Shown: positions 12,092-28,916 of the stretch, piece after piece
How positions within the stretch are numbered: the stretch's first letter is position 1
Layout of the letters: each line of letters starts with the position of its first letter
Assembly: GCA_018662715.1 (NCBI GenBank)
Contig: JABJFP010000114.1
Location: 1 to 32,933, forward strand
DNA: 32,933 nucleotides
Direction: 5' to 3'
Source: Methanobacteriota archaeon
Lineage (GTDB): Archaea > Thermoplasmatota > Poseidoniia > Poseidoniales > Poseidoniaceae
Notes under the pieces: generated by a model
Told to the model about the DNA's origin: nothing
The model's input: only the letters and a program-made list of their open reading frames with translations
Database searches by the model: none
Program-made: the position numbers and the translations under genes

Positions 12092-15000
12092 ATGGTCTCT
12101 TTCTCACCTGCGTTCAGCATGGGAAGCAGTAGACGGTCCGTCTTCGTGCCCGGCTTGATGGCCGCATTGCTCCTCGTCACGATGATTCCATTGGAACATC
12201 CAGTGCTTGAAGAATCGTCTACGGTGCTGCATTCAGGAGGATACGACCCCGGCGTCTCTGATGTCCCAACATGGAGAATCGGTGACCGCTGGATATACTC
12301 TGGGACCTTTGATCCAACAATTCTTGTTACCGACACGGGAGTTGACGCCACCGTTGGTGAAATTCAAGGCGACACGACTTCTGAAGTGACTGCAATTTCA
12401 ATGCAAAATGTCGACAACATGTCTGTTCTTGCCTATACCCTACGCTCAAGCGCAAACTTCGATAAATCGGGTGTTTCCCTTGAAGGATTCTCCGGAAACG
12501 TATACATTGAGTACACCCAAACTGAATACCTTCGTGTAAGTGATTTATCCCCAATCCGAAGTGACCTCGACATGTACATACGGTTCGTTCCAAGCGGAAT
12601 TTCGTTCTTGGAACAAATCCTTGGAGACATTACGATCTCGACGACCTATTCTCCAGTCAACGAGAATTATGATTTTCCATTACGAGCCAATGAACGTTGG
12701 ACTACGATGACAACGTCCTATGTCCAATGGTCGGGTCAAAGCGATTACATTACGCCCTTCCCGCCTCCAGTAACTGAAACCAATACCACAACCTGGGTTG
12801 TGTCTGATGTGGGGAGACCTACCAATTCCTTTGGTCAATCGACCGACTATGGTGGTTGCAATGGTTCGTATGAGATGGTGTCGTACAACAGCGAAGGTGA
12901 TTCAGAAGGTTACAGATGGTATTGTCCTGAAGTTGGAAACTATGCTTGGTTACACACCGAAGACGATATTGGACTCACCATTGACTTCCGGCTTAAGCGG
13001 TACGACCCTGTAGGAGCATCAGGAGTTGACCCGTATTCAAATCCAGGCTCAAGAGACTCGTGTCTAGAAGTCAATCCCGAACGAAGCATCACCGCTCTCA
13101 ACACACCAATGCAGGTTTGGGTCAATGCATCCTCAAGTTGCTTTACCAATCCTTCTGGAGTCAATCTTGAACTTCATCATGAACACGAAGGGATTGTCAA
13201 ATCCCTGACAACCGCTGCAAACGGAAGCGCATGGACAACCATTGACATCGGGGATGCACGTGATTCATCCGACAGCCAAACGGACTATGCAAGCCACGGT
13301 TTAGTCGCCAAATCTGGTTCCTTTGTGGGAGCGAGCACCGTCACACTGGACCAATATTTGGTAGGGCTGGATGTGTTCGCTGACGCTGAAGCTGCACAAA
13401 TTCTTAGAAACCGAAGCGGTGTAATCACTCCGCTTAATGCCCTATCAGGTTACAATGTCCTTCCTGGTGATGATTTGGAAATTGAAGTCTCGTTTAACAA
13501 TCGGGGGATCACCGCATCCACCGCAACTGAAGCAGTCATCACCTTACCTGGTGGACTCACCAACAAAGTGCCGCTGCCAGCCCTTGAAACCTATCAGGTG
13601 CACAAGGTGGCTCTCAATTGGACCGTACCGATTACCGCGGAAATCGGCACGCAGAGTTTGATGTGGGAAGCAGACCCTGACGGAATCAATTCTGCTGATG
13701 CTAACCCTTCCAACAATCTTGCTATAATCGACCTCTTTGTTGGACGGGTCCCAACTCCCGTTGTCAACGGCTCATCAGGGCTAACCAACGAATATATCCT
13801 CCTTGACGCCTCGGAAAGTTTCGATGAAGATGGAGGCAATGTCTCCTGCAAATTCAACGTGCCATTTGACGATGGGAGCCGCACTTGGTCCACTCTGAAA
13901 GTGCTATCACCAGATTGCATACTCAACTATTCGTGGATTGATGACGGTTCTTATCCTGTAGAAATCACCGTTATCGACGAAGAACGGGATGAAGTGAATC
14001 TCACCGTTATGGTCGACGTCTTGAACCGTGCACCGTTATTAGAGGTCAGAAGTGCACGAACTGAGGCAATGGTAGAGTATCCCATCACACTCTACGCCTA
14101 TGCAAACGATTCGGATTCAGAAGACGTATGGCCTGGCGTGGTTGATATCTATTGGCCTGGTGCAAACTGTAAGGAAGGATACTACACACGAACATGCACG
14201 ACCACATCAACAAAGGAAGGATGGAACACGTTTACTGCCGTGGGGTTGGATGACGATAGCACCATGGCAACGGCAACGATAGACATCCGGTTTACCAATA
14301 TCAAACCGCACAGCGTGAACATACAACTGGTCGACCAAAATGGGCCGATCCTCATGGACGCCCAGAATACATGGCACGTTACCGAAGACCAACTGGTCCT
14401 GGTGAAAGGGCAAGCACAAGACTCCATTGACGACATTGATGAACTCACCCACACGTGGTGGCCCGATGATGCCCAACCCTCACTCATACGCACATTTGAC
14501 GGGCGCACATCCGAATTTGACATGATCTGGCACGAAGCGGGTTTGCACAAAATGAGGCTTGAAATCACGGACTCCGAAGGTGAATCAAGCGGTGTTGAAG
14601 AACGGTGGATTAGTGTAGCAAACATAGCACCCAGCATAGAGCCACTGGCCCAAATTCTACCTATTGCTGAAGGGCAAAGCATTAGCGTGTCGGGAACTTC
14701 TTCCGATTCAAGTTCCGACCAAGAAACACTGATCCGTTGTTGGGACATTGACCCGAGCATGGACTCCAATGATATCGGCAGCGCAGATGACGATTGTGAC
14801 GTCATTGGCGACAATCTTACTATTTCTTGGAACCGAAGTGGAACCCATAAGTTGGTGTACCACGTGACTGATAATGACGGAGCGCACACGAGTGAAGTTC
14901 TGACGGTTGAAGTATTGAACACACCACCTCTCATTCGTACTGCGAACGTAGCATGTGTAGCCTATGAGCCGTGTACGCTCGATGCGCAATCAACGATTGA

Positions 15001-15628
15001 TGCACTCAATGATTTGGAGGGATTAACCATCGTCTGGGACGTTGATATTGAATTTGATAGTAATGAAGATGGTATTCTCGACAACGACGCTGACATCATC
15101 GGTAAGACCGTCACCTATACGTTCCGTAAAGCAGGAACTCAATCCATCAAAGTGATGGCATGGGATGAGGACCCACAGCGACCGGGAACCAAAGTCATCA
15201 CGTTCGCTGTAGCTCCTGCCGATCGTACAGCATTGGAAAATATCGGGGCTTCGTTGGCTGGAGAAGATGCAAATCCAATGATGCAAGGAGGATTGCTCGT
15301 AGTACTGCTTGGACTTTTGTTGATGTTCTCACGACGAAAATCAAAATCCGGAGAAGAAGAGATGTGGGGTGATGTATCTCAGAGCTTGATGGTTGAAAAT
15401 AATGAATCCCGCGAGGATGCACTTGCTGAAAAGCGTCCAAATTCTCCACCGCCAGAATATCTATTCCAAGTAGCCCTAGAAAATGCGCCGAAGACCATTG
15501 GGGTACACGCTTCACCTCCTGCTGATGGAAACGGCCCTCCGTTACCTGAGACTGGACTTCCCGAAGGGTGGACCGCCGAACAATGGTCTTACTACGGCCA
15601 ACAGTGGCTGGAATCGCAGAATCCGTGA
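12092..15628 (+). CDS. Giant type-I surface protein A: novel N-terminal domain, CARDB domain, multiple PKD-like Ig domains, TM anchor, cytoplasmic tail
   Basis: Signal peptide with an RR (SSRRSVFVPGLMAALLLVTMIP). CARDB-like segment (LEIEVSFNNRG...ADPDGINSADANPSNN). Repeated PKD-type endings (GTHKLVYHVTDNDGAHTSEVLTVEVLN and others). TM helix GGLLVVLLGLLLMF (about 15278-15328). The 99-aa tail contains PPPEY, GPPLPE and GLPEGWTAEQWSYYGQQWL. Alternative start ATG 12119; the track start 12089 is a TTG. Confidence 0.85.
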   Translation: MVSFSPAFSMGSSRRSVFVPGLMAALLLVTMIPLEHPVLEESSTVLHSGGYDPGVSDVPTWRIGDRWIYSGTFDPTILVTDTGVDATVGEIQGDTTSEVTAISMQNVDNMSVLAYTLRSSANFDKSGVSLEGFSGNVYIEYTQTEYLRVSDLSPIRSDLDMYIRFVPSGISFLEQILGDITISTTYSPVNENYDFPLRANERWTTMTTSYVQWSGQSDYITPFPPPVTETNTTTWVVSDVGRPTNSFGQSTDYGGCNGSYEMVSYNSEGDSEGYRWYCPEVGNYAWLHTEDDIGLTIDFRLKRYDPVGASGVDPYSNPGSRDSCLEVNPERSITALNTPMQVWVNASSSCFTNPSGVNLELHHEHEGIVKSLTTAANGSAWTTIDIGDARDSSDSQTDYASHGLVAKSGSFVGASTVTLDQYLVGLDVFADAEAAQILRNRSGVITPLNALSGYNVLPGDDLEIEVSFNNRGITASTATEAVITLPGGLTNKVPLPALETYQVHKVALNWTVPITAEIGTQSLMWEADPDGINSADANPSNNLAIIDLFVGRVPTPVVNGSSGLTNEYILLDASESFDEDGGNVSCKFNVPFDDGSRTWSTLKVLSPDCILNYSWIDDGSYPVEITVIDEERDEVNLTVMVDVLNRAPLLEVRSARTEAMVEYPITLYAYANDSDSEDVWPGVVDIYWPGANCKEGYYTRTCTTTSTKEGWNTFTAVGLDDDSTMATATIDIRFTNIKPHSVNIQLVDQNGPILMDAQNTWHVTEDQLVLVKGQAQDSIDDIDELTHTWWPDDAQPSLIRTFDGRTSEFDMIWHEAGLHKMRLEITDSEGESSGVEERWISVANIAPSIEPLAQILPIAEGQSISVSGTSSDSSSDQETLIRCWDIDPSMDSNDIGSADDDCDVIGDNLTISWNRSGTHKLVYHVTDNDGAHTSEVLTVEVLNTPPLIRTANVACVAYEPCTLDAQSTIDALNDLEGLTIVWDVDIEFDSNEDGILDNDADIIGKTVTYTFRKAGTQSIKVMAWDEDPQRPGTKVITFAVAPADRTALENIGASLAGEDANPMMQGGLLVVLLGLLLMFSRRKSKSGEEEMWGDVSQSLMVENNESREDALAEKRPNSPPPEYLFQVALENAPKTIGVHASPPADGNGPPLPETGLPEGWTAEQWSYYGQQWLESQNP
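15554..15610 (+). other. Conserved W/Y-rich cytoplasmic tail motif, copy in protein A
   Basis: GLPEGWTAEQWSYYGQQWL, 7 residues from the C-terminus. It matches the protein B copy at 15 of 19 positions. Confidence 0.8.
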
Positions 15629-15675
15629 AGCGGCAGGGGACACTTCCTAAAGTATGAGAACACCCACGACGATGC

Positions 15676-18600
15676 ATGAACCGAGATATGTGGAAGGCTG
15701 CCTTCGTCGCCGTTTTGTTTCTTCTCACTCCGATGCTAAACCATGTCGGCCCTGCAACCATCCTCTCCGAGGATAACACTCCCGATAACAGTTCGACTGG
15801 AAACCTCTCAGTGGTTGATGTCCCCAATTACAGAATTGGTGATAAGTGGGTGTATGAGACGAAATTTGACGTCGCACAACTGATCGCCCAAGCCAATGTC
15901 TCTGCATCCCTCAACACACTGACAGGAGATACGGTCAACACGGTCACTGACATCCTCTATGAAACCGACGAAAACGGCAAGTCTGTTCTTGTGTACGAAA
16001 TCACCATTGACGGCTCGTTTAGTTCCGGTAATAGTGGGGCGACTCTTGAAGGAACGAGTGGACGGTTGGAAATTGATTACGATGGAACCGACATCATCCG
16101 AGCAAGAGACCTGGCGACGAGGGAATCCAATTTCAATTTGGATGTTACATTTGCTCCTTTTAACCTCGGGTTTTTGAGCTTCACATTGGCTGATATCAAC
16201 TTTGATAACAGTTACACCCCAGCCAAAGAAACCCATGATTTCCCACTTCGAAACGGCGACCAGTGGTACATGCCCTTCCGCGCAGACACAGTGGTAACAG
16301 GTACGTCTGATTATTTTGACCCGTCGGAATTTGATGGAGGTGGACCCGAAAACTATTCATGGCAGGTCATCAAGAATGATGCCCCCAGTGAAGATGGAGA
16401 CACACCGCAATATTTGGGCTGCGACAATTCATACAAAATCTCAGAATGGAATGAATCAGGAGTCAATACCGGATTCAACTGGTACTGCCCCGATGCCCGA
16501 GGAAGCGCCTGGAACCGAATCATCAATCCAGCAGGATTTACCATTGATTGGATTTTGAAAACGTACAACCCAAGTGATTCAAACAGTGTCATTCCAGCCT
16601 CTTCGCCGGGTGGGCGAAACACCAACCTCAATGTAGCAACGGCCTACTCCGCAACCCTTCCGGACTCCACTGAAACCATTACCGTTGATTACAACGTTGC
16701 AGGCTCACCACCAAATCCGATAGCGAATACGAACCTGCAATTGCGCTATGAAATCGCTGAAACGATCCTTAACCCAACGACGGACCAGAATGGAGTAGCT
16801 CAAATTTCACTAAATGTATCCAACATGACCGACACAACGCCAAGTAGCGACGACCATACCAGCAACGGAGTTGTTGTTTACGACCCGGCTGCAAAAATCG
16901 TCGGAGCCGCTACTGTTGTTCAAGACCTCAGCGTTGTAGGAATTGACCTCATTGCCCAGCCCTCATCAGTCATCGTGGAACGCACAAGAGGGGGTGTCAC
17001 GACAACGCTAGGGGCATCGATTGGCTACAACGCATTACCTGGAGACATGATGATGTTCTCATTGCCCGCTCAAAACCGAGGTGTACTCACATCTCCAGCA
17101 ACCTACATGGAAATTGAGACTCCTGATGGAGTCACATACCGAGAGCCATTAACAGCCATTGGACCGTACTCAGAAGAGCGAGTCATCGTCAACTGGGCAG
17201 TCCCTGAGGAACTAGCAGTGGGAGTTAAGAATCTCAAATTCACTGTGGACCCAGACATGAACGTGACCGCCGATACCAACAAGACGAACAATGATGCTAC
17301 CATTGGAATTTTCATTGGTCGCGCCCCAACCGCTCTTTTTGAGGCAAGTGAAGGAAATTACACTTTTGAAAATGTCACCCTCAACGCTACAGGTAGTTAT
17401 GACGAAGATGGCGGAGAAGTCGATTGTGTCTTTGAGATTGAGTCTCGTGTTGGGCTCATCGATGTTATTGAGGCACCTGATTGCTCCACTCATTGGAACT
17501 GGTCAAACAGCGGCACATGGTCTGTCACGGTCATCGTCATCGACGGTGAATTGGACATTGATGAACTTCAAATTGATGTTGTCATCTTGAACCGGGCACC
17601 TAAATTCAACCTTTCCCATGATGCGACTGTCCCCGTGGAGCAATCCATTACCATCAGTGCAATTGACATTCAAGATATCGACACATCGTCCCCAACTGGG
17701 CAGCAGGTAACCATCTCATGGCCAGGATTGGAATGTACGGAAGGGTTGACCCAGCCCACATGCACGTTCATTCCCACAAGCGAAGGGCCCATGAATATCA
17801 CAGCCATTGCAACCGATGACGATGGTGCCACAACAACGGTAACCAGCCCATTGGACGTGTTGAACATCCCACCAACAATTGGTTTCCCAGAATTATGGAC
17901 CGGTGGGGAACAACTGTTGCAGGACGCAAATGGTACCTGGCACCTTGACGAAGACGAAATCGCATTGCTCCGAATCGTAGCCGACGATACGAGCAATGAC
18001 CAAGGCACGCTCATTGTAGAATGGCTTCCCTCTCTTGCCGATGAAAACTGGACCGTCACCAGCGTTGGAATCTCCTCATCTGAAGCCGTTGCATGGACAA
18101 CATCTGGAATCCATACGTTAAACGTCCGAGCAATTGACAGCGACGGTGCAACATCGGCAACTCAAACTGGCGAGGTTTTGATTCACAACGTCGCTCCCAC
18201 CGTCACAGGATTGCCTGGAAATACTCCGGTGTTTGAAGAGGACAACCTCTCTTTAGAAGTCGTTGCAAGCGATACGGCCTCTGACATTGACACCTTGGAG
18301 ATTTGCTGGGACTTTGACGCCACGGCTGACTTGGATAATGACGGAACTAAGGATAACGATTGTGAACTTACAGGAGCATCAATTTCCAAGTCATGGTCAA
18401 CAACTGGTGTCCGTTGGATCACCGTCACTGTCACCGATGACGATGGAGCAACTGCAACTCAATCGATGAATGTCAGCGTACTCAATCTGCCACCAACTGC
18501 AGTCATCACGCTCGGCACCCTTGCTGATAATCTCATGGAGGGAGATAACCTGACCTTGGACGGAACTCAATCTGTTGAGACAGCGGGTGACAAAACGACT

Positions 18601-19272
18601 CTTATCTACCAGTGGGATGCTTCTTTCTTGGACACCGATTTGGATGGTAACAAGGTCGGAGATGTTGACCACCTCGGCGGAACATGGACCATTGAAGACC
18701 TTCCTGCAGGAACATGGAACATCATACTGACCGTTACCGACGATGATGGTGAATTTCAAACAACAGAACTCTCATTCGTGGTATCAGAAGCGCCTTCTGA
18801 AGGATTGTTTGAGAGTATATCCGACACCGTAGGGACGACCATGACATATGTCATCTTTATATTGGGAATCGTGATTGTTGGGCTTGTTGCCTTCTTGCTG
18901 TTTACAAGAAAGCGGCCCAGTGACGAACTCAAGGGATTCTCTGCCTTCGAACAGCCCTTTGAAGCACCACCAGTCGCTGCAGCCCCGGCCCCGGTAGAAG
19001 CCGCACCACAACCAACATCGTACGCACCGCAACCCGCTGCCGCTGTTGCTGAGCCAATCTATCAAGCCCCAGAACCGGTTAACACCGGCCCACCGATTCC
19101 AGCAACCGGACTTCCTGAAGGATGGAACATGGAACAGTGGAATTACTACGGAGAACAATGGCTAGCAGCAAATGCTGCACCAGCACCGGTCCAACAACCC
19201 ATAGTTTCTAACCCTGCACCAGCACCTGCCTCAACGGAGCTACAATCGTTGTTGGACGATCTCGACTTTTGA
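15676..19272 (+). CDS. Giant type-I surface protein B (paralog of A): same N-terminal domain, CARDB, PKD-like repeats, TM anchor, P/A-rich cytoplasmic tail
   Basis: Signal peptide MNRDMWKAAFVAVLFLLTPML. Blocks colinear with A: DVPNYRIGDKWVY, ATLEGTSGRLEIDY, HDFPLRNGDQW, GCDNSYKISEWNESG...WYCPDARGSAW, TIDWILKTYNP. CARDB segment (...DPDMNVTADTNKTNN). PKD-type units (TGVRWITVTVTDDDGATATQSMNVSVLN and others). TM helix TYVIFILGIVIVGLVAFLLF (about 18835-18903). The 122-aa tail contains GLPEGWNMEQWNYYGEQWL and ends in LLDDLDF. Confidence 0.85.
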   Translation: MNRDMWKAAFVAVLFLLTPMLNHVGPATILSEDNTPDNSSTGNLSVVDVPNYRIGDKWVYETKFDVAQLIAQANVSASLNTLTGDTVNTVTDILYETDENGKSVLVYEITIDGSFSSGNSGATLEGTSGRLEIDYDGTDIIRARDLATRESNFNLDVTFAPFNLGFLSFTLADINFDNSYTPAKETHDFPLRNGDQWYMPFRADTVVTGTSDYFDPSEFDGGGPENYSWQVIKNDAPSEDGDTPQYLGCDNSYKISEWNESGVNTGFNWYCPDARGSAWNRIINPAGFTIDWILKTYNPSDSNSVIPASSPGGRNTNLNVATAYSATLPDSTETITVDYNVAGSPPNPIANTNLQLRYEIAETILNPTTDQNGVAQISLNVSNMTDTTPSSDDHTSNGVVVYDPAAKIVGAATVVQDLSVVGIDLIAQPSSVIVERTRGGVTTTLGASIGYNALPGDMMMFSLPAQNRGVLTSPATYMEIETPDGVTYREPLTAIGPYSEERVIVNWAVPEELAVGVKNLKFTVDPDMNVTADTNKTNNDATIGIFIGRAPTALFEASEGNYTFENVTLNATGSYDEDGGEVDCVFEIESRVGLIDVIEAPDCSTHWNWSNSGTWSVTVIVIDGELDIDELQIDVVILNRAPKFNLSHDATVPVEQSITISAIDIQDIDTSSPTGQQVTISWPGLECTEGLTQPTCTFIPTSEGPMNITAIATDDDGATTTVTSPLDVLNIPPTIGFPELWTGGEQLLQDANGTWHLDEDEIALLRIVADDTSNDQGTLIVEWLPSLADENWTVTSVGISSSEAVAWTTSGIHTLNVRAIDSDGATSATQTGEVLIHNVAPTVTGLPGNTPVFEEDNLSLEVVASDTASDIDTLEICWDFDATADLDNDGTKDNDCELTGASISKSWSTTGVRWITVTVTDDDGATATQSMNVSVLNLPPTAVITLGTLADNLMEGDNLTLDGTQSVETAGDKTTLIYQWDASFLDTDLDGNKVGDVDHLGGTWTIEDLPAGTWNIILTVTDDDGEFQTTELSFVVSEAPSEGLFESISDTVGTTMTYVIFILGIVIVGLVAFLLFTRKRPSDELKGFSAFEQPFEAPPVAAAPAPVEAAPQPTSYAPQPAAAVAEPIYQAPEPVNTGPPIPATGLPEGWNMEQWNYYGEQWLAANAAPAPVQQPIVSNPAPAPASTELQSLLDDLDF
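19108..19164 (+). other. Conserved W/Y-rich cytoplasmic tail motif, copy in protein B
   Basis: GLPEGWNMEQWNYYGEQWL, preceded by GPPIPAT (A has GPPLPET). Confidence 0.8.
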
Positions 19273-19281
19273 GGACATAGT

Positions 19282-19854
19282 ATGGCGAATCTGTGGCAAT
19301 TCTTTGGATTACCTGACCCCGAAGGGAGTACAAGCCGAGAGGCAGCCCCTGCAACGACGCTTACACCGGCCCCAACACCTGTTCATGTTGAACAAACCAC
19401 GCTTGAATCAATTGAGCCTGCGCCCGTGTTGGCCAGCAATGCCCCAACTTCTTCACAGCCATCTCTAGAACGGCTCCAGCCTCCATTGAATTGGACTGGC
19501 CCTGTCACGCCCGATGGAGAACCGTTCCACGACCTTGGACTTCATACTGGACGCCCACAAGCACTTCCATCCAAGGCCCTGAGATATGTGGCCCCTGATG
19601 CCATGAAACGCATTCATTCCCAAGCCATACTCCAACGAGTCCTTCAAGGAGATACCGTCATCGTGGATTTACGACCATTGGTCCATATGGAAAGCCACCA
19701 GATGGCCTGCAGAAGAGAATTGAAGCACATGGGAGATGAGGCAGGAGTCAACATCTTCTCCCTTGACCAAGAAGATAAATTACTCATGATACCTGGAATC
19801 AACGTTGTTGTTGACATGGAGAAACATGAACTTGGGCTTACGCCGCTAATGTGA
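19282..19854 (+). CDS. sepF: SepF-like cell-division protein (FtsZ membrane anchor) with an unusually long P/T/A-rich linker
   Basis: The C-terminal core GDTVIVDLRPLVHMESHQMACRRELKHMGDEAGVNIFSLDQEDKLLMIPGINVVVD follows the archaeal SepF pattern: G-x-hIhhDh..., then an acidic helix, then G-x-I, then ll-h-P-x-v-I. The N-terminus MANLWQFFGL could form an amphipathic membrane-targeting helix. A GAGGA Shine-Dalgarno motif overlaps the upstream stop codon. Confidence 0.6.
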   Translation: MANLWQFFGLPDPEGSTSREAAPATTLTPAPTPVHVEQTTLESIEPAPVLASNAPTSSQPSLERLQPPLNWTGPVTPDGEPFHDLGLHTGRPQALPSKALRYVAPDAMKRIHSQAILQRVLQGDTVIVDLRPLVHMESHQMACRRELKHMGDEAGVNIFSLDQEDKLLMIPGINVVVDMEKHELGLTPLM

Positions 19855-20468: not shown

Positions 20469-20516
20469 GAATCCGAAGGGAGAGGTTGAAGAATTGGAAG
20501 GTGTACCGCAGCGTGA

Positions 20517-21248: not shown

Positions 21249-23072
21249 TCATTCAACGGTGACCGACTTGGCCAGATTCCTGGGCCTATCGACATCCTTG
21301 CCAAGACGTACAGCTGTCCTGTACGCCATCAATTGAAGAGGAAGTACCGTAAGTAATGGAGTCAACCAAGGATGAATTTTGGGGATTGCAATTGAAATAT
21401 CGCCTTCCTCAGCAATCGCGTCTCCTTTTTCATGGATCAGGATTATCTTCGCACCTCGGGCCTTGCATTCATGTATTGCGAGGAGGGTTTTTTCCTTCAA
21501 ATGGTCACTGGGTGCAACAACAACAACCGGACTACCATCTTCGAGAAGAGCCATGGGTCCATGTTTCATTTCGCCCGCTGGATATGCAAGGCAGGGAATG
21601 TAGGCCAGTTCCATCAGTTTCAATGCGCCTTCCTTGGCTACGGGGGCTGAAAGGCCACGACCCAAATACAGCACTGACTTTGCTTGAGCGAGAAGGTCTA
21701 CGGCCTCATCAATCGGGCCGACATCTTCGAAGTAGGCCTCCATAAGATGTGGGGCCTGTTGGAGTTGTTGAATCAATTCACGGCCTTGTTCTTTGGACAT
21801 ATTGCGGCTACGCCCAAGTTGCATTGAAAACACGGTTAACGCTCCAACCATGTTTGTGAAGGCTTTTGTTGAGGCTACCGATTGTTCAGGCCCCGAGTGG
21901 ATGTAAACGCCTTGACCGCAAAGGCGAGCAATTGTTGAACCGACGACATTGACGACTCCAAAGACTTGCCCTCCCTTCAATTTTATTTCTTTGATTGCGG
22001 AAATCGTATCGGCCGTTTCTCCTGATTGAGAAACAGCGAGATAGATCGCTTTTGTATTGATGATGGGGTCGTTATTCCTGTATTCGCTCGCGATGTGGGT
22101 TACTGCTGGTATACGAGCCATTTTTTCGATGAGCATTTGACCGATCTCTGCAGCAAATGCAGCGGTTCCACATCCAAGCAATCGGACGTGAGGTGCTTGG
22201 ACAAGAGTAGAGTGAGGTAAACGCATACCACCCAGCCTCCCAGTGCCCATTTCTCGATCGACCCTGCCGGTGATGCAATGCCTGAGCGCATCGGGTTGTT
22301 CGTAAATTTCCTTGTACATGTAGTGGGGAGCATCACCAAGCTCGGATTCAGCCCATGAATCTTCAAGTGTCTGAACATTCGTTTGGATGGAGCGGCCCTG
22401 TTTTGAAGCAACTTTGATGGAATCTCTTGTGATTGTCGCCATGTCTCCATCCTCAAGGTAAACCACATGTTGGGTGTGCGAGGTCAGTGGATGAGGGTCA
22501 CTAGAAACAAACATCTCACCTTTTCCTTGCCCTATGATGAGAGGGGACCCGTTACGTGCACAGACCAAGAGGTCATGGTCATGGAACATAACACAGATGC
22601 CCCAAGTGCCTCGGACACGTTTAAGCATTCTACGGACCGAATCCTGAGGGGTTGCGCCAGCCTCCAATTCAAGCCCGACCATATGGGCAAGGACCTCTGA
22701 ATCTGTTTCACTCTTGAGTTCAATTCCCTTGGCGATAAGTTTCGCCCGAAGTAAACGAAAATTTTCAATGATGCCGTTGTGTACGAGGAGGACCTTGCCA
22801 TCGTACGAAGCATGTGGATGTGTGTTCTCCTGTGTCACTCCTCCGTGAGTAGCCCAGCGTGTGTGAGCAATACCCATCGTTGAATTTGCTTCAGCGGGCA
22901 ATACCTGCTTCAAATCATTGACCTTTCCAACAGTCTTGTGAACGCTAATGGATTCTCCATCATGGAGTCCCACTCCAGTAGAATCGTATCCTCGGTACTC
23001 CAAGCGCCTTAATCCCTCAACCAATATGGGCAGCGAACGTTGATGACCAATATATCCAAAAATACCGCACAT
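21249..23072 (-). CDS. glmS: Glutamine--fructose-6-phosphate aminotransferase (isomerizing)
   Basis: N-terminal nucleophile MCGIFGYIG. Two SIS domains (SQSGETADT). C-terminal ...LAKSVTVE. Length 607 aa. A GAGGA motif overlaps the upstream stop codon, 6 nt before the ATG. Confidence 0.97.
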   Translation of the reverse strand: MCGIFGYIGHQRSLPILVEGLRRLEYRGYDSTGVGLHDGESISVHKTVGKVNDLKQVLPAEANSTMGIAHTRWATHGGVTQENTHPHASYDGKVLLVHNGIIENFRLLRAKLIAKGIELKSETDSEVLAHMVGLELEAGATPQDSVRRMLKRVRGTWGICVMFHDHDLLVCARNGSPLIIGQGKGEMFVSSDPHPLTSHTQHVVYLEDGDMATITRDSIKVASKQGRSIQTNVQTLEDSWAESELGDAPHYMYKEIYEQPDALRHCITGRVDREMGTGRLGGMRLPHSTLVQAPHVRLLGCGTAAFAAEIGQMLIEKMARIPAVTHIASEYRNNDPIINTKAIYLAVSQSGETADTISAIKEIKLKGGQVFGVVNVVGSTIARLCGQGVYIHSGPEQSVASTKAFTNMVGALTVFSMQLGRSRNMSKEQGRELIQQLQQAPHLMEAYFEDVGPIDEAVDLLAQAKSVLYLGRGLSAPVAKEGALKLMELAYIPCLAYPAGEMKHGPMALLEDGSPVVVVAPSDHLKEKTLLAIHECKARGAKIILIHEKGDAIAEEGDISIAIPKIHPWLTPLLTVLPLQLMAYRTAVRLGKDVDRPRNLAKSVTVE

Positions 23073-23081: not shown

Positions 23082-26000
23082 TCATAGGTCAAATGCAGTC
23101 GAGCAGATTGGACACTTGATTCGTTTTAACATCAAATCTTTGACGGTAAACGCCGCATTACATTCTGGACATTGGGCATCCCGCTTTAGTTCAGGTAGAG
23201 GCATACCACCTGGAAGAGGGAGTTCACCGGGTAAGGGGAGTGGTGGGAGTTGTCCCGGAAGCGGAAGTTCGCCAGGCAAGGGCAGCGGAGGTAATTCGCC
23301 CGGAAGTGGGAGTTCGCCAGGCAAGGGCAGCGCTGGAAGTTGGCCGGGGAGCGGCATGGTTGCTACCATCTCTTGCACTTCTCGCCGTTGTTTCCTCTCC
23401 ATACGGCGTTGAAGACGAGCATTTCCTTCACCGTCTTGCACTTTACGTTCCAACTCTTGAGAAAGAGTTGGGTCTTCAATAACAAGTTCATCCTCCATGA
23501 CCGCACTCATTGAATCACCTACAACAAGGACTGAATCTTCACTGTCTACCGAGAGGAGCGGCCCATCATCGTGTTCGGGCTGAATCATGAGTTCAATAGC
23601 GTCTTGGTGGCCTTCCGATACAAGTACAGCGTCGTTTTCTTTGGAATGCGAACGTCTTACTGCAACAATAACACCAACCAAGAAGAGGCTGATGGTGAGG
23701 ATTGCCCCTGCAAGAATGAGACGTTTTGTTGCATCCGTCCCGGGTAGTGGCCCAAGGAGTAAATCAAGTATTGTGCTTGATTCAATCGAGTCTTGGTTTC
23801 CGGCAAGAGACGCTTGCTTGTAGAGCGAGAACACTCCGTTTGTGGAACTCGAACACAGTAATGTGTCCTCTTCCATGGAGCCTATACCGAACAGAATACC
23901 GTCAACGAGTAGATTCGATAGGCCCTTTACGGCTTGCCCATCCTCGTCAGCCACGAGGCCCCAGCGCACAACTGGGCCGTAATAATTGGTTTCGTCATGG
24001 TAAAGATAAACTCCTTCAGAACGCACTTGAAGATGAACTGAAGTTGCACCAGGCGAGAGGAGGTGGTTCGGTTCATTGATCGACCATACCGAATCGGTCA
24101 CCGCAGAGACGACCCTGGCCGTCCTTCCCATGCCCTCAATCCAAGCCCCAACCAATCGGTCTTCTCCATCAACAACAATGACTTCTAACGCAGCTTCGCC
24201 TACATGATCTCCGACAGATGACTGGAACGTCCACGAAGATTCTGTAAATTCGCCATGCGTATACATCAATCCAGCTCGTTTTATGCCGGTAACATCTTCT
24301 CTGTATTCGTGGTAGAGAATGTGAAGGTATTCGTTACCTAAAGCCACGCTAAGTGCGCTTGAATCGGCGTTGCTAATGTCCACATTTGCAAGGACCGTGA
24401 CGGCATTACCCCATGAAGTACCTCGGTCCGGAGTTGATGATGATAGAACAAAAATCGATGTAATGTCTTGCCATGAGCCACCTGTTGAAAGGTCTCGATG
24501 ATATCCAGCCAGAACCATCGTCCCATCGTATTCATCAAACGTAAAGCCATGATACGTGCCTTCTGTGAGTTTCAAAGGTTGCATGTGATAGTGCTTAGCG
24601 GTTGTTTTTCCAGCGGCAGAGATTGACGTCATGGCAATATCTGTCAGCGTGTAACCTTCTGCATTGATGCTACGACGGCTCCATGCCGCTTGGACCAAAC
24701 CATCATCCCGTTGGTAAACGGCTAACTCTCCACCCCAATCGTTTTCGAGCAGAATATCGCCTGGCATTGCAAGGGATGAAGAGATTGTACGGACATGAAG
24801 TTCTCCGTCCCGAGTTGTAAAGAGCAATCCTCCGTCAGGGAGTCCCACGAATTCAAGTGGTGTTTCTTTTGTAGCCAATGAAAGTGGGGATTTTGATCCC
24901 CCTAGATCGAAGTACCCAACTGTGACATTGAAATACAGTTTACTATGCTCAAATTCAACTCCTGAACCCGTGAGGGTTGCTCGGTATGAAACCACTCCTG
25001 GCTCGGAGACCATATCGGCAAACCGAGCGATGCTAGACCCGGAACCTGTTTCCGAACCCGGTACAAGGGTTAGGGTTACATCATTAGGAGAATCAATAGC
25101 AACATAGAGTCCGGTTTCATAATCTTGCTTCGCAAGACTTACTTTGAGGTTGGTTGCTTGTGTTTCACCAAGGTTATCCACTCGGATGTTGATATCAAAA
25201 GGAGCATCAGGGGTTGGGATCACAGGATTTAATCGGGCAGAACCAGGCAAAAAGCGGAGCATAGGTTCAACCGGACGTTCATCGATTTGGAAGGAAAACG
25301 TGTAGGTGTTATCTTCAGGTTTGGGATCGTTTTGTGCATCGGAGGGGTCAATTAGGACACTAACCTCATGGGAGCCCGCTTCAGTAGCCCACCAATACAG
25401 GGTGGTCTGAACCGATTCCCCTTTGGCAAGGCTGGTGATGTCATCAAAAGATGGGTATGTGGCCGAGTCCTCCCCTGGCCCGTCTAATCGGACATAAATG
25501 TCGTTTGCATCCAAATCTCCGCTGTTGCGGATTTCGAAACGAATTTCAAGAATTGAACCTTCCAAAGCAGAATTCACCTGAAGGCCATCGTCAAAAACCA
25601 CCGGTGCTCCCGTAAAGGAGAAGTCTGGGGATGGAGGGATATTGTCTACGATATACGAACGCATGGAAATGTTGCTTTTGAGCCCAGAGGCATTGAGTGC
25701 CCGGATCTTGATGTCCACTTGTCCATCATCAGAAGCGGTTGAGTCCCAATTGAAGTACCAGTTTACGCTTTTTCCGTCTTCATTGGCAACATCAGTTCCA
25801 AATGTCCAATCTCCACGATCAATTTTGAACTCAATGCGCTCTGCCTCAGTTCCCTCAACCATGCCTGTAAATTCAACAAGTCCTGATAATTTCGTCCCTA
25901 ATGAGGGGCCTGTGAAGTTAATGCCCATGTCTACAATAAGATTCTCATCTGTCACTTCCCCTCCACATTCATCGGCACCTAAAACAAAATCAAGGGCGCA

Positions 26001-27731
26001 AGCAGCATCTACAAGTCCAAAGCCCCATTTGTCATTCCAACGGTCAGAAACAGATGGCTCAGATGCAATTGGTTCACCTGGCTGACTCCTTGACTCGGAT
26101 GAATTTCGTAGAATGTCTTTTATTTCCTCGGGGGTGAGTTCACTATCTGCTTGAAGCATTGCGGCAACGATTCCGGAAACAACTGGCGTAGCCATACTGG
26201 TTCCGCTCTTTGAGTCGTATTCATTATCTGCAAGTGGCCTGTCTGGCTGGCCGGGAATACTTGTACCAATTGCTGCTGAGGCAGAAATAATGTTGCTACC
26301 AAAGGCCGTGATGTCAGGTTTTAATTCATCCCAATCATCATCGTCTCCATCATCCAAACGAGGACCATAATTACTGTAATCTGCGAGGACATCATTCGTT
26401 CTGTTGACTGAATTTCGGTCATCTACGGAACCTATTGAAATCGCCCCATCAGCACTGGCTGGAGATGGTACCCGTTGATTTCCGTCATTCCCCATGGCTA
26501 CGATGCATGCGATTCCGTTCGTAGTTGCAGTATTAACGAGACGAGCCTCAGCCCCTGAACCATTATCTCCATCATCATCTGGATTGAGAGGCGAGGAGAC
26601 TGAACCAAACGACATTGAGGCGACATCAATACCCTTTGCAGAACCGTTACCCGGCCAATCTGTGTCCTTATTGTTAATCATCCATTGCATTCCGCTAATG
26701 GATGCTTGTGAGTTTGTGCCGCCGGAATCAGTGAGGACCTTGATATCAACAAGATAGGCTCCCATTCCGGTTCCGGTGTGTTCGCGATTAGAACCGCCTG
26801 TCCCAATCGCAGTTGCTGCGACGTGAGTGCCGTGGCCTTGCCCGTCATCTGGGTCATCCGTCCCATCGTTGTTTGAACTTGCAGATGTCGCATCGAATCC
26901 AGCGACCCATTTTTGATCATCATAGCTGGTGGCATCACCATCGGGTTCATCGCCCAAATCATCAAAATCGTTGAGAGCACGGTGTTCGTTATCTACGCCG
27001 GTATCCAAGACAGCCACAACGACTCCCACACCGTTATAGCCACGCTCATATGTGCTGTTAGAGTAAGTGTCAGAGGGCATCGACTTTGCTGCTTTGGATG
27101 CGACTCCATTGAAGGGAACCATCACGTTTTGCATTTCGATGACGACAACCCCTTGGAGGTGGTAGATATCCATGAGTGCACTCACAGGAACCTTGTCCAG
27201 AACCACCGCATCGAGGGAATCCAAGACCTGATACCAAGCACCTCGGTCTTCTCCAATCCAGCCATGACTCTCAAGAACTCGTTCTAAATCCTCAAGTTCC
27301 TCGGCTTGTGGCCTCCAAGCATAATCAACGACAATGGCCACAGTCTTTCTCCCATCATCACCGATGATGGACGTTGGAGAGATGGACTCTTGGCCGCTAA
27401 TGACACGCTGTAGGCGGTCATCCATTCCGTTCCAATCCAAATCGGGACCGTAAGCAAGCCACCACATCGAGTCTTCTGATGATGCACGGTCACCTCGGTC
27501 AATCATGCGTGTTGGACGCAAGCAGAGTTCTTCGTCGCACATCAATGGAGGAAGAGAATCAATCAGAATTGGGTCTGTAAAACCGACCTCTTCATCCGCC
27601 GCAGGTTCTTGAGCAAGGGCCATCCCGCTAACATCAGCAATTAAGACGATGAGAGCAAACAAATATGCGGCTCTGCGGTGCGAATTTGTTGCAGAAGATG
27701 TTCTCTCCATTCGCCTCACTATTTCTTGCAT
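23082..27731 (-). CDS. Giant membrane-anchored subtilisin-like (S8) serine protease with CARDB-like domains, C-terminal TM anchor, and a cytoplasmic proline-repeat tail ending in a zinc ribbon
   Basis: The catalytic triad sits in the canonical context: VAVLDTGVD (Asp), GHGTHVAATAIG (His), SGTSMATPVVSGIVAAM (Ser). Signal peptide with an RR (SHRRAAYLFALIVLIADVSGMALA). CARDB-like segments are present (EIRNSGDLDANDIYV...IDPSDAQNDPKPEDN). There is one Asp-box-like TPDRGTSW. TM helix LILAGAILTISLFLVGVIVAV (23658-23720). The tail is 191 aa. ATG 27731 is preceded by a G7 tract 5 nt upstream; the track start GTG 27758 is less likely. Confidence 0.9.
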   Translation of the reverse strand: MQEIVRRMERTSSATNSHRRAAYLFALIVLIADVSGMALAQEPAADEEVGFTDPILIDSLPPLMCDEELCLRPTRMIDRGDRASSEDSMWWLAYGPDLDWNGMDDRLQRVISGQESISPTSIIGDDGRKTVAIVVDYAWRPQAEELEDLERVLESHGWIGEDRGAWYQVLDSLDAVVLDKVPVSALMDIYHLQGVVVIEMQNVMVPFNGVASKAAKSMPSDTYSNSTYERGYNGVGVVVAVLDTGVDNEHRALNDFDDLGDEPDGDATSYDDQKWVAGFDATSASSNNDGTDDPDDGQGHGTHVAATAIGTGGSNREHTGTGMGAYLVDIKVLTDSGGTNSQASISGMQWMINNKDTDWPGNGSAKGIDVASMSFGSVSSPLNPDDDGDNGSGAEARLVNTATTNGIACIVAMGNDGNQRVPSPASADGAISIGSVDDRNSVNRTNDVLADYSNYGPRLDDGDDDDWDELKPDITAFGSNIISASAAIGTSIPGQPDRPLADNEYDSKSGTSMATPVVSGIVAAMLQADSELTPEEIKDILRNSSESRSQPGEPIASEPSVSDRWNDKWGFGLVDAACALDFVLGADECGGEVTDENLIVDMGINFTGPSLGTKLSGLVEFTGMVEGTEAERIEFKIDRGDWTFGTDVANEDGKSVNWYFNWDSTASDDGQVDIKIRALNASGLKSNISMRSYIVDNIPPSPDFSFTGAPVVFDDGLQVNSALEGSILEIRFEIRNSGDLDANDIYVRLDGPGEDSATYPSFDDITSLAKGESVQTTLYWWATEAGSHEVSVLIDPSDAQNDPKPEDNTYTFSFQIDERPVEPMLRFLPGSARLNPVIPTPDAPFDINIRVDNLGETQATNLKVSLAKQDYETGLYVAIDSPNDVTLTLVPGSETGSGSSIARFADMVSEPGVVSYRATLTGSGVEFEHSKLYFNVTVGYFDLGGSKSPLSLATKETPLEFVGLPDGGLLFTTRDGELHVRTISSSLAMPGDILLENDWGGELAVYQRDDGLVQAAWSRRSINAEGYTLTDIAMTSISAAGKTTAKHYHMQPLKLTEGTYHGFTFDEYDGTMVLAGYHRDLSTGGSWQDITSIFVLSSSTPDRGTSWGNAVTVLANVDISNADSSALSVALGNEYLHILYHEYREDVTGIKRAGLMYTHGEFTESSWTFQSSVGDHVGEAALEVIVVDGEDRLVGAWIEGMGRTARVVSAVTDSVWSINEPNHLLSPGATSVHLQVRSEGVYLYHDETNYYGPVVRWGLVADEDGQAVKGLSNLLVDGILFGIGSMEEDTLLCSSSTNGVFSLYKQASLAGNQDSIESSTILDLLLGPLPGTDATKRLILAGAILTISLFLVGVIVAVRRSHSKENDAVLVSEGHQDAIELMIQPEHDDGPLLSVDSEDSVLVVGDSMSAVMEDELVIEDPTLSQELERKVQDGEGNARLQRRMERKQRREVQEMVATMPLPGQLPALPLPGELPLPGELPPLPLPGELPLPGQLPPLPLPGELPLPGGMPLPELKRDAQCPECNAAFTVKDLMLKRIKCPICSTAFDL
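23103..23171 (-). other. C-terminal zinc-ribbon motif of the S8 protease
   Basis: CPECNAAFTVKDLMLKRIKCPIC (CxxC-x15-CxxC), 6 residues from the C-terminus and on the cytoplasmic side of the TM anchor. Confidence 0.7.
23190..23357 (-). repeat. In-frame proline-rich tandem repeat (PLPGELP units; 45-nt / 15-aa super-period)
   Basis: Encodes MPLPGQLPALPLPGELPLPGELPPLPLPGELPLPGQLPPLPLPGELPLPGGMPLPE. The 22-nt string agttcgccaggcaagggcagcg occurs twice on the plus strand (23266-23287 and 23311-23332). Confidence 0.9.
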
Positions 27732-27827
27732 GACAACCCCCCCTTTGAGCCTATCCACTTTTGGGGCTTTGATGATATGGTATCAAGTCACCGGAAAAGC
27801 CATCCAAAAAGGAGCGGAATTCCATCC

Positions 27828-28916
27828 TCAAGACGGAGGCCATTCAAAATGTGAACTTGATGCAGAACACTGCAACCGAGGACCTGATTGTCGCTCTACT
27901 AATCCCAAGGCGCCGTTGCATGTTGGACATGACCCTGCATCAGCAATGTGCTCCATCCAAGCCATCCGTGTTTCGGGTTCGTCGCCAGCTTGAAGTAAAT
28001 TTTTGAAAGGCTCCCGCAGGTGTTTTGGAATGGCGATTCCACGTTCAGTCCACGGGTCTGTGAGTTCATCAAGAGCGATCATTGTGGCTTTCATCTTGCG
28101 AAGCCTTGCCGAGACTGCATCTTGGCCACTCGGACCTCCATCAATCACTCCGAGTTCAACGGGACCTCCGCGAGCAATGAATGGCAAACAGGCATAAGCA
28201 GCAACAAAGCCACCAATGTGTGCCATGTGTGCGATGCCGCTGGATTGCCCTGAATCCATTGTTGAAAGTGCGCGAATGAGTTCCATTCCAAAGTACAGTA
28301 ATGCAATAAAAACAACTGGCCAAGGCCGAATCAAAAGGAGAGGGAATGGAATTTCATCCTTTGGCCAACCTGAAAGGTAAGCCCCTAGGAGGCCAAATGC
28401 GGCCCCTGATGCACCGAGAGCCATGGTGGTTGAACCTGCATTAAACACCGTCCAGCACAACGAGCCGCCGAGGAGGCCAACAAGGTAAACACAGGCAAAT
28501 CGGCCCCTCCCCAAACGCTGCTCCAGTGGAACTCCAACCAAGGCAAGAATAATGACATTGCCAAGAACGTGGGTAAGGTCACCTTGGCTGTGAAGAAATC
28601 CTGCTGAAATTAAGGTGTGCCAAAAGTTTGGAGTTCCTGTCGTTCGTGCAGGAACGAGGACAAAATCTGACCAAACCCAATAATAAACAATATCCCATGA
28701 AGCGAGAAGAGCCCATAATACCTGAACTATCGAGCCAAGGAGAACGCTGACCGTGATTCCCATTGCCAACGAAGTATCGGTCCTGAATGCATATACAATC
28801 GGAATCGTAATGGCCATCATCCACAGAACCAAAACGGACAATTCCGCTGGACTGAAGACGCTCACGGCAAAGGCCATGGCTACCGCTTGAGGTGGTCCTC
28901 TTTGGAGTTGATGCAT
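27828..28916 (-). CDS. Rhomboid-family intramembrane serine protease with a C-terminal soluble extension of about 110 aa ending in a zinc-ribbon-like motif
   Basis: Rhomboid signatures appear in order: FLHSQGDLTHVLGNVII (H-x4-H-x3-N, TM2), ALGASGAAFGLLGAY (GxSG catalytic Ser, TM4), HMAHIGGFVAAY (catalytic His, TM6). One extra N-terminal TM is present. ATG 28916 is preferred because the track's TTG 28961 lies 5 nt from the divergent gene. ATG 28877 is also possible. Confidence 0.85.
   Translation of the reverse strand: MHQLQRGPPQAVAMAFAVSVFSPAELSVLVLWMMAITIPIVYAFRTDTSLAMGITVSVLLGSIVQVLWALLASWDIVYYWVWSDFVLVPARTTGTPNFWHTLISAGFLHSQGDLTHVLGNVIILALVGVPLEQRLGRGRFACVYLVGLLGGSLCWTVFNAGSTTMALGASGAAFGLLGAYLSGWPKDEIPFPLLLIRPWPVVFIALLYFGMELIRALSTMDSGQSSGIAHMAHIGGFVAAYACLPFIARGGPVELGVIDGGPSGQDAVSARLRKMKATMIALDELTDPWTERGIAIPKHLREPFKNLLQAGDEPETRMAWMEHIADAGSCPTCNGALGLVERQSGPRLQCSASSSHFEWPPS
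27849..27929 (-). other. C-terminal zinc-ribbon-like motif of the rhomboid protease
   Basis: CPTCNGALGLVERQSGPRLQCSASSSH (CxxC-x16-C-x5-H). Its first knuckle, CPxCN[AG]A, is the same as in the adjacent S8 protease. Confidence 0.5.

Follow-up and report, generated by a model that had tools for sequence, protein, structure and literature searches.

Between positions 12092 and 28916 of a 32,933-nt stretch of Poseidoniaceae DNA (assembly GCA_018662715.1, contig JABJFP010000114.1; hereafter the window) lie the genes for two giant surface proteins, A and B, a divergent SepF-like protein, a single-domain KaiC-like ATPase, a membrane-anchored S8 subtilase and a rhomboid protease. We found that A and B are conserved single-locus paralogous immunoglobulin (Ig)-repeat type-I surface proteins, and that their cytoplasmic tails contain short conserved islands. 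One of these, the W/Y module, is Poseidoniales-specific as far as named members show and represents a portable cytoplasmic module present on many different surface and membrane proteins. A preliminary description of the region had joined all of these genes into one module, its tails open to reading or modification by the rhomboid, SepF and the KaiC-like ATPase. We instead give about an even chance to the reading that the region is a slowly rearranging part of the Poseidoniales core genome with several independent transcription units, not one system. A link between the giant genes and SepF, or between the rhomboid and the subtilase, is possible.

The window comes from the Poseidoniaceae (Marine Group IIa), which together with the Thalassarchaeaceae (Marine Group IIb) belong to the order Poseidoniales. 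Orthologs of A, B, S8 and the rhomboid were taken from 80 Poseidoniaceae genome loci (L001-L080), and the comparison included two distant lineages (L086 and L088) and the Thalassarchaeaceae loci L087, L089, L090, L096 and L098. Topology was called from Kyte-Doolittle hydropathy scans, and fractional identities are means against the window copy. All features of the preliminary description were present where it had placed them, except that the SepF label found no confirmation at the sequence level, and every gene in the region is a member of a known family. The scans also bore out the common architecture ascribed to A, B, S8 and an LTD-amidohydrolase encoded further upstream: each has an N-terminal hydrophobic segment and a single C-terminal transmembrane (TM) helix, beyond which the chain continues into the cytoplasm as a tail of 98, 121, 193 and 45 amino acids, respectively.

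Conserved islands in the tails of A and B

The gene for A occupies positions 12092-15628 of the plus strand, with the TM helix encoded at 15275-15331 and the tail at 15332-15625. B follows on the same strand (15676-19272; TM helix, 18850-18906; tail, 18907-19269). The proline motifs and the W/Y motif noted earlier were confirmed: PPPEY lies within an RPxGPPPxYLF element of the A tail (15449-15460), and GPPLPE in A or GPPIPA in B is followed by GLPEGW..EQW.YYG.QWL, all of these being confined within the window to the A and B tails. The W/Y module of A (GPPLPETGLPEGWTAEQWSYYGQQWL, 15533-15610) is located six residues from the C-terminus. In B, the module (GPPIPATGLPEGWNMEQWNYYGEQWL, 19087-19164) is more internal, and the protein terminates in an acidic/hydrophobic peptide, LLDDLDF-COOH (19249-19269). 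The module has the consensus GLPxGWTxEQWxxYGxQWL.

In the orthologs, both tails are built of fast-evolving linkers broken by conserved islands. Identity in the A tail reaches 0.76 in the W/Y module and 0.64 in the RPxGPPPxYLF element, with 0.19-0.27 in the flanking linkers; in the B tail it reaches 0.83 in the W/Y module and 0.86 in the last ten residues, with 0.31-0.42 in the linkers around them. Among Poseidoniaceae further removed from the window, the RPxGPPPxYLF element has decayed to PPPGF or DPPVERAF. The LLDDLDF peptide of B is at least 90% conserved in 73 orthologs, and its variants in distant lineages read DDLDL, LDFDL and DDLDF. Overall, the tail motifs are kept across approximately 50-60 species, and the W/Y and B-terminal islands are more conserved than the ectodomains of A and B. 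Since the motifs are conserved in orthologs, the earlier view of the tails as functional cytoplasmic modules is supported. The tail islands of A, B and S8 are under strong purifying selection, and in this they resemble binding motifs or mini-domains.

Carriers of the W/Y module were listed, as had been suggested for the tail modules, with a profile: a two-sequence profile was run against 1.84 billion cluster representatives. At E<=1e-3 the search returned 592 clusters, of which 88 passed E<=1e-10, and the strict motif was present in 141 of the best 150 matches; among the rest, three repeat proteins (P0155, P0197 and P0252) were discarded as spurious low-complexity matches. Where a TM helix could be detected, the module lies C-terminal to it in all matches except one. 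It then either forms the terminus (A type) or is extended by a stretch with D-[DG]-L-[DE]-[FLI] at its end (B type). The carriers include A/B-like, cadherin-like (P0164), CARDB/Ig-like (P0228, P0261 and P0245) and SAP-domain proteins as well as proteins without any domain match (P0256 and P0222). At least five ectodomain types other than those of A and B bear the module, at unlinked loci. All named members belong to Poseidoniales or to unclassified Euryarchaeota. Four further W/Y genes could be placed on contigs, where they neighbour genes for AspRS, GCD14, LonB, ribosomal proteins and RimK; no SepF, rhomboid, KaiC-like or S8 gene was found near these four.

Another W/Y surface protein family (P0164/P0310) is encoded between GCD14 and the membrane protease LonB (L081, 7957-13586; L082, 10001-15351), and the L081 gene seems to be split by a frameshift or an assembly error into parts of 687 and 499 amino acids. 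The exception in module placement, P0225 (L084, 4046-6373), is a type-II protein with an N-terminal SAP domain, the W/Y module, a TM helix and an ectodomain, in this order. Because a phage-type integrase gene is close by, P0225 may reside on a mobile element.

The W/Y module gave no Pfam match at E<=10 when the tails were searched and has no significant relative in the PDB. AlphaFold2 (AF2) placed a helix across EQWNYYGEQWLAAN of the B module with a predicted local distance difference test score (pLDDT) of ~76. An in-plane amphipathic membrane helix was rejected, with a hydrophobic moment of 0.10-0.21 and aromatic residues scattered round the helical wheel. The opening GLPEGW is identical to the start of the WW domains of Itch and YAP, and the PPPEY of the A tail resembles the PPxY motif that such domains recognize. 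However, the Trp residues of the module are spaced by 5 and 7 residues versus 20-22 in WW domains, the segment after GW is predicted to be helical versus a three-stranded sheet, and the PPxY of the A tail is not strictly conserved. The sole PDB matches, to YAP and Itch, were non-significant (E 0.5-1) and spanned the LPxGW start only. With no significant model match, a WW-domain identity was rejected for the W/Y module and likewise for a motif in the linker of the SepF-like protein (see below).

We propose that the W/Y module and LLDDLDF would serve for docking to a partner in the cytoplasm, by which the surface proteins would be anchored, sorted or positioned. Such a partner need not be encoded within the cluster.

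A and B as candidate core envelope proteins

A begins with a signal/anchor segment and, still in its N-terminal part, a unique domain of ~330 amino acids; CARDB and PKD-like Ig repeats, the TM helix and the tail follow, and the family scan found PKD/CARDB matches in both giants. They are collinear full-length paralogs with 33% identity over 1182 columns. Mean ectodomain identity to the window copy is 0.70 for A and 0.65 for B (47 Poseidoniaceae orthologs for A). Both proteins are acidic (D+E 15%, K+R 4-5%) and contain 14-20 N-x-S/T sequons; the pair has a constant size of ~7.2 kb and a single conserved locus in every genome sampled. From the conserved locus, the constant size, the well-conserved ectodomains, the acidity and the sequons, we infer that A and B are core envelope (S-layer-like) glycoproteins and not variable adhesins.

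The S-layer glycoprotein (SLG) of Haloferax volcanii is an Ig-like-domain protein with a C-terminal anchor. The hallmark of an archaeal S-layer glycoprotein is to be the most abundant protein of the envelope and to form a 2-D lattice; the traits compared here are indirect. A and B resemble such glycoproteins in size, acidity and abundance of sequons, in their array of Ig-like (PKD/CARDB) domains, in having a signal at the N-terminus and a membrane anchor at the C-terminus, and in their conserved core-genome locus. They differ in being two paralogs instead of one protein, and their anchor is a TM helix with a motif-bearing tail of 100-120 amino acids, not a PGF-CTERM/archaeosortase signal. No sequence relative of A was found in the PDB.

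Several sorting routes were considered and rejected. No NCBIfam sorting-signal model (PGF-CTERM and other archaeosortase substrates) matched A, B or S8, and with long tails beyond the TM helix the three were ruled out as archaeosortase substrates. A twin-arginine signal suggested by SRRSVF in A is present in only one of 52 orthologs. The QGG that precedes the TM helix of A, reminiscent of a GlyGly-CTERM signal, is not conserved and is replaced by AQ[LI][GS]LL in other species.

In two Poseidoniaceae species (L036 and L045, ~6230-9988), one B-like giant gene replaces the A+B pair. Its product has a hybrid tail in which an A-like QQWLDSQ module is followed by a B-like extension ending in LLDDLEF.

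Gene order and transcription units

Wherever a Poseidoniaceae locus extends far enough, the genes run in one order and orientation: Fe-S oxidoreductase (minus), mevalonate kinase (MVK, plus), TATA-box-binding protein (TBP, plus), A (plus), B (plus), SepF (plus), Maf (minus), KaiC-like ATPase (plus), GlmS (minus), S8 (minus), rhomboid (minus) and ABC (plus). Synteny, put forward as a test in the preliminary description, extends beyond this genome, with an invariant order in the 80 loci and much of it retained in more distant lineages. The invariance within Poseidoniaceae includes housekeeping genes, so comparison within the family cannot separate a functional relation from general collinearity.

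More distant genomes are more informative about where the region breaks. In L086, whose SepF is 37% identical to that of the window, an archaellum operon lies upstream of TBP and a lone giant gene; SepF, Maf, GlmS, S8, rhomboid and ABC come next, with an inverted KaiC gene between Maf and GlmS. In L088, two unrelated genes stand between the giant gene and SepF, and GlmU stands between GlmS and an S8-like gene. In the Thalassarchaeaceae loci, the arrangement FeS/MVK-TBP-giant1-giant2-SepF is seen wherever the upstream flank is covered, and unrelated genes follow; no Maf, KaiC-like, GlmS, S8 or rhomboid gene was found within 10 kb of giant-giant-SepF in these loci. Here giant1 has the W/Y module and an end of the form ..GLDFDL, whereas the tail of giant2 is plainly acidic. 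The proposed module is broken in L087-L090, L096 and L098, and it has insertions in L088. Because Thalassarchaeaceae keep the left part only, the proposed module splits into a left part that is order-wide and a right part that is not tied to it. TBP, used here as a control in judging the synteny, accompanies the giant genes more persistently than any other neighbour; with MVK, another housekeeping gene, it is no less syntenic than the genes of the proposed module.

Gene orientations give at least four units, namely (TBP)-A-B-SepF, Maf, KaiC-like, and rhomboid-S8-GlmS. TBP, a housekeeping gene, is located at 11426-12052 (plus strand) and SepF at 19282-19854 (plus). The Maf-family nucleotide pyrophosphatase gene (19857-~20435, minus) is convergent with SepF, and the KaiC-like gene (20517-21245, plus) is divergent from Maf and convergent with GlmS (glutamine-fructose-6-phosphate aminotransferase; 21249-23072, minus). 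S8 (23082-27758) and the rhomboid gene (27828-28961) are also on the minus strand, and 9 nt separate the S8 stop from the start of GlmS. The stop codon of B is 5-10 nt away from the SepF ATG in Marine Group IIa and in L086, which leaves no room for a promoter, and the TGA stop is usually inside a Shine-Dalgarno (SD)-like TGAGG; this spacer is ~95 nt in Marine Group IIb. In L086 and in most Marine Group IIa loci (L001-L080, ~9985-10003), the TGAGG stands 8-10 nt 5' of the ATG. Translation of SepF thus appears, from the junction sequence, to be coupled to that of B in Marine Group IIa, where the two would be co-expressed. In the window itself (19270-19284), B and SepF share one reading frame (..DDLDF*GHSMANLW..), an arrangement that is not conserved across species. 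Two smaller co-directional units survive the comparison, A-B-SepF and rhomboid-S8-GlmS.

The KaiC-like ATPase matches the KaiC family (E 4.6e-45) as one domain of 242 amino acids. It is related to the archaeal KaiC-like ATPases PH0186 and PH0284 (E 1e-19 to 1e-23), which likewise consist of one RecA/KaiC domain of ~240 amino acids, and to KaiC CI domains (1e-33). A circadian KaiC was ruled out, the single domain aligning to one KaiC domain and not to two (~500 amino acids) as in the double-domain clock protein, whose CII carries phosphorylation sites. It is also distinct from ArlH, of which L086 has a separate, similar gene in its archaellum operon. In L086 and L088 the ATPase is 77-87% identical to the window copy, where SepF is 37-40% and the giants are 31-40% identical, a level of conservation near that of TBP for the ATPase. 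Such a pattern suggests an important function, and the gene appears to behave like an unrelated housekeeping gene.

A joint role of the rhomboid, SepF and the KaiC-like ATPase in reading or processing the A, B and S8 tails, by which surface adhesion and proteolysis would be coupled to the cytoplasm, is in our view improbable. All of the proposed parts are real, their order does not vary among the 80 Poseidoniaceae genomes, the TBP-giant-SepF-Maf-KaiC-GlmS-S8-rhomboid block is still recognizable at the distance of L086, the tails are conserved and the candidate reader domains are all cytoplasmic or intramembrane. However, TBP, MVK, Maf and GlmS are interleaved with these parts in convergent and divergent units, the S8/rhomboid/KaiC half is not near giant-SepF in Thalassarchaeaceae, other proteins with W/Y tails are encoded at loci without these genes, and the KaiC-like gene is flipped in L086 and remains highly conserved while tails and SepF diverge, as is typical of an unrelated housekeeping role. 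In addition, a search with the S8 tail returned 18 matches, all of them short gene fragments, and no other architecture carrying this tail, and structure prediction gave no confident docking of the B tail to SepF (see below). The one-module proposal is thus unsupported. In the core-genome reading, adjacency would reflect general collinearity, because the block also contains TBP, MVK, Maf and GlmS and is divided into at least four convergent or divergent units.

A divergent SepF behind the giant genes

The 190-amino-acid product of the gene that follows B had been labelled SepF. Its close relatives, with up to 97% identity, are from Candidatus Poseidonia or Poseidoniaceae. At the sequence level the label found no footing in family models: the protein had no Pfam, NCBIfam or PDB match, including none to the Pfam SepF family (PF04472) even at E<=10, and neither the window sequence nor a 34-sequence profile reached a SepF entry of the PDB. 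PF04472 was matched by only one of the 34 relatives (E 0.025), and the Marine Group IIb ortholog scored 15.1 bits against a cut-off of 27 (E ~0.03). At the fold level the label held. AF2, run with the 34-sequence alignment, predicted a beta-alpha-beta-alpha-beta-beta core (residues 100-180, pLDDT ~90), and the best nine Foldseek matches of this core in the PDB were all SepF or SepF-like (3zig, 3zie, 6scp, 8hzt and 3zii among them; E 4e-4, target-normalised TM-score (TMt) up to 0.81). A Thalassarchaeaceae ortholog with 34% identity to the window protein is named 'SepF-like (DUF552)' by IMG. On these predictions, we accept the gene as a divergent SepF.

The protein starts with a conserved hydrophobic segment (MANLWQFFGLPDP, 19282-19320) in which M-x-[NS]-L-W-x-F-F-G-L-P-D-P is invariant; AF2 placed a short helix at residues 4-7, and the hydrophobic moment is modest (0.25). 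A variable linker of ~80 amino acids, predicted to be disordered (pLDDT <50), leads to the alpha/beta core (~19567-19839). Within the linker is an invariant motif, PPLGWxGPxTPDGEPFHDLG (PPLNWTGPVTPDGEPFHDLG, residues 67-86, 19480-19539), that is not present in canonical SepF. AF2 modelled this motif as a low-confidence beta-hairpin, whose sole similarity, to strands 1-2 of the YAP1 WW domain, was non-significant (E=1). The pairing of a WW-like linker motif with the PPxY-like PPPEY in the A tail could be a coincidence. The predicted helix alpha2 of the core carries invariant or near-invariant R144, R145 and K148.

In archaeal SepF, a membrane helix at the N-terminus is joined by a linker to the core (PMC8178401), and the protein is the membrane anchor of FtsZ in Methanobrevibacter smithii and H. 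volcanii (PMC8178401, PMC8187382). The window protein follows this three-part plan: its short, conserved hydrophobic N-terminus, which may correspond to the membrane helix, precedes a linker predicted to be disordered and a core of alpha/beta type (~90 amino acids), and this core superposes on the SepF-like structures of P. furiosus and A. fulgidus (TMt up to 0.81). It differs in being too divergent for the Pfam SepF model, in its unusually long linker with the extra invariant motif, and in being encoded directly behind giant surface-protein genes, where a published survey found the context of sepF to be variable. We expect that it would do the usual job of SepF as FtsZ membrane anchor. No FtsZ gene was found in the 1.6 Mb of loci examined.

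In M. smithii, SepF binds the acidic/hydrophobic C-terminal peptide of FtsZ, NEDQLDDFIDGIF, via Asp-Arg/Lys ion pairs, and archaeal FtsZ tails centre on a near-invariant GID motif (PMC8178401). The LLDDLDF of B is similarly acidic and hydrophobic but lacks GID. These features raise the idea that the envelope is coupled to the divisome, a B-type tail (LLDDLDF and/or the W/Y module) binding SepF, possibly in the FtsZ-peptide groove, and tying the insertion or anchoring of the main surface protein to the division ring. We regard this as unlikely, with arguments on both sides. The giant-SepF adjacency is order-wide, the short B-SepF spacer with its SD-like TGAGG recurs in Marine Group IIa and L086, each lineage keeps at least one giant with the W/Y module and an acidic terminal D-x-L-D-[FLI], binding of an acidic/hydrophobic C-terminal peptide is an established property of archaeal SepF (PMC8178401), and R144, R145 and K148 on predicted alpha2 offer basic residues. 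The absence of the near-invariant archaeal GID from LLDDLDF speaks against it, as do the plain acidic tail of the giant just 5' of SepF in Marine Group IIb and its ~95-nt spacer, the two unrelated genes that part giant and SepF in L088, and the equal persistence of TBP as a neighbour. Moreover, when a SepF-B tail fusion was modelled with AF2 (SepF monomer, single chain, alignment depth for SepF only), no confident docking was seen and the terminal peptide stayed undocked with pLDDT ~50. Less probable still is a fuller version in which the tails tie the surface layer to the FtsZ-SepF ring, the W/Y module and/or LLDDLDF binding the co-transcribed SepF through the FtsZ-peptide groove or the lineage-specific linker hairpin and steering envelope insertion or anchoring to the division site.

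Some points weigh against our own reading of the region as core genome with independent units and of the tails as docking sites for a partner that may be encoded elsewhere. The giant-SepF adjacency extends across both families, at ~35% SepF identity, and survives rearrangements on either side; together with the tight B-SepF junction, it hints at more than drift. The negative result of the AF2 fusion, being a prediction made under the settings given above, barely constrains a tail-SepF interaction. The S-layer assignment of A and B draws on composition and conservation only, and the docking partner of the W/Y module is putative.

The subtilase and the rhomboid protease

S8 matches Peptidase_S8 (PF00082; E 1.9e-46, 159 bits) and contains CARDB. 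The motifs LDTGV, HGTHVA, GNDG and GTSMATP are present, and the catalytic set is kept in 55/55 orthologs. It is accordingly classed as a membrane-anchored subtilase with intact catalytic residues and is predicted to be active. Translation probably starts not at the GTG of the open reading frame (ORF) but at an ATG a few codons further in. The TM helix is encoded at 23664-23720 and the 193-amino-acid tail at 23085-23663 (minus strand). From the membrane to the C-terminus, the tail includes a basic element (GEGNARLQRRMERKQRRE, 23379-23432), LPxLP/PLPG repeats (23172-23378) and a CPxC...CPxC zinc-ribbon-like element (23085-23171), all on the minus strand. The basic element (GEGNARLERRMKRKQQRE) has an identity of 0.81 versus 0.35-0.38 in the flanking tail segments, and the zinc-ribbon element has 0.65, with 0.75 in the catalytic domain. 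The zinc ribbon seen earlier in this tail proved conserved as a pattern, CxxC...CxxC being kept in 54/55 orthologs, and is less certain as a family member: the MJ0042-type Zn_ribbon_4 (PF13717) scored 21.7 bits where its cut-off is 30.3, and it gave E 1.9e-4 when the tail was searched by itself.

The rhomboid is a clear member of its family (S54, PF01694; E 2.6e-23, 83.3 bits versus a cut-off of 22.6), with HVLGN (HxxxN), GASGA and AHIGG; GxSG and AHxGG are each found in 37/37 orthologs. Its start is probably near 28877. A cytoplasmic C-terminal domain with the pattern DPW...EPETRxAW...CPxC...QC...H..WP is encoded at 27831-28169 (minus strand). The zinc ribbon attributed to this domain holds as far as CxxC...C...H is conserved in 37/37 orthologs, and it has no Pfam match. 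Among the 120 rhomboid matches listed, all with at least 54% identity, none was recognisable as coming from Marine Group IIb, and the named ones were Poseidoniaceae, Poseidonia or unclassified.

Rhomboid systems known to act on the envelope include bacterial rhombosortase with its GlyGly-CTERM substrates and the apicomplexan ROM/SUB2 adhesin sheddases, and single-pass type-I proteins are the usual class of rhomboid substrates. Like RhoII of H. volcanii and other envelope rhomboids, the protein here is a catalytically intact rhomboid with an extra cytoplasmic domain of metal-binding type, and it is likewise associated, here through gene neighbourhood, with type-I surface proteins and a subtilase anchored in the membrane. 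Its extra domain differs in being C-terminal, CCCH-like and without a family match. A rhombosortase/GlyGly-CTERM system was rejected: no rhombosortase-type NCBIfam model matched the rhomboid at E<=0.01, the tails run 98-193 amino acids past the basic cluster (100-190 as compared with the bacterial system), and the Gly-Gly before the TM helix is not conserved here.

Regulated intramembrane proteolysis, in which the rhomboid cuts the TM anchor of S8 (or of A and B) and sheds the ectodomain or frees the basic zinc-ribbon tail, is in our view doubtful. The rhomboid, S8 and GlmS genes are co-directional with short gaps, the three are adjacent in L086 and in all Poseidoniaceae loci long enough to show them, both enzymes have intact catalytic residues in all orthologs, and S8, A and B have the single-pass type-I topology. 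RhoII of H. volcanii affects S-layer glycosylation, adhesion and motility (PMC9263693), which is in line with such a role. Nevertheless, the pairing is an argument from adjacency alone, the metabolic gene GlmS belongs to the same string, and in L088 GlmU separates GlmS from the S8-like gene. Identity is low in the TM helices of A (0.45) and S8 (0.37), the QGG of the A helix is not kept, and the rhombosortase-type models gave no match. In the core-genome reading, rhomboid-S8-GlmS would be a separate envelope-maintenance unit, consistent with the influence of RhoII on S-layer glycosylation and adhesion (PMC9263693).

Other features of the window

Upstream of the region, the window encodes the LTD-amidohydrolase (654-3230, plus; LTD and Amidohydro matches in the family scan), CysRS (3231-4727, minus), an epimerase (4787-5806, plus), two membrane proteins (5773-7297, plus and minus), a MutY-like protein (7155-8171, minus), the Fe-S oxidoreductase (8168-10276, minus) and MVK (~10330-11361, plus). 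Downstream of the rhomboid are ABC/Ccm-like and NMD3-like genes (28967-32267, plus). A W-E-E ... PPxxPPK pattern in the amidohydrolase tail (3093-3227) recurs in a single distant ortholog (L088, 2-397); in this one pair, KMWEEGN..MPPMEPPKEEE compares with EFNEWEENSN..LPPLKPPKK.

The Maf ORF as listed (19857-20717, 286 amino acids) includes ~94 codons 5' of the family match, which begins near residue 100, and overlaps the start of the KaiC-like gene. The true Maf start is probably near 20435, leaving a divergent intergenic region of ~80 nt. TTTATATA (11408-11415), just 5' of TBP, is the sole strict TATA-box consensus within 11.3-29.2 kb, and no comparable TATA box was found in this interval ahead of A, B or SepF. 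The TBP-A gap contains a perfect 8-bp inverted repeat, ACGCTTCT-GAAG-AGAAGCGT (12070-12089), that ends 2 nt before the A ATG (12092). As an RNA hairpin, it could affect translation of A or the 3' end of TBP.

Implications for Poseidoniales

Poseidoniales (Marine Group II) are uncultured and are among the most abundant archaea of the surface ocean, and we know of no work on their envelope and division machinery. This analysis yields a candidate pair of core envelope proteins for them. To our knowledge, conserved cytoplasmic tail motifs are unusual on prokaryotic surface proteins; being conserved, they imply a cytoplasmic partner for sorting, anchoring or signalling. The W/Y motif is common to many otherwise unrelated surface proteins, and its profile is a direct means to list client proteins and to seek their partner.

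New elements are the portable W/Y module, the B-type terminal peptide, the basic and zinc-ribbon tail of the subtilase, and a SepF that escapes family models and is encoded order-wide behind giant surface-protein genes. A phylogenomic survey of Poseidoniales mentions neither SepF nor FtsZ, rhomboid or subtilisin (PMC6461757). As SepF is missed by standard models in Marine Group IIa, genome surveys could wrongly call it absent. A link from the tails to the FtsZ-SepF ring, if true, would be an integrin-like outside-in connection not described in archaea, and a giant-SepF link, if real, would be relevant to the question of how archaea coordinate growth of the S-layer with cell division.

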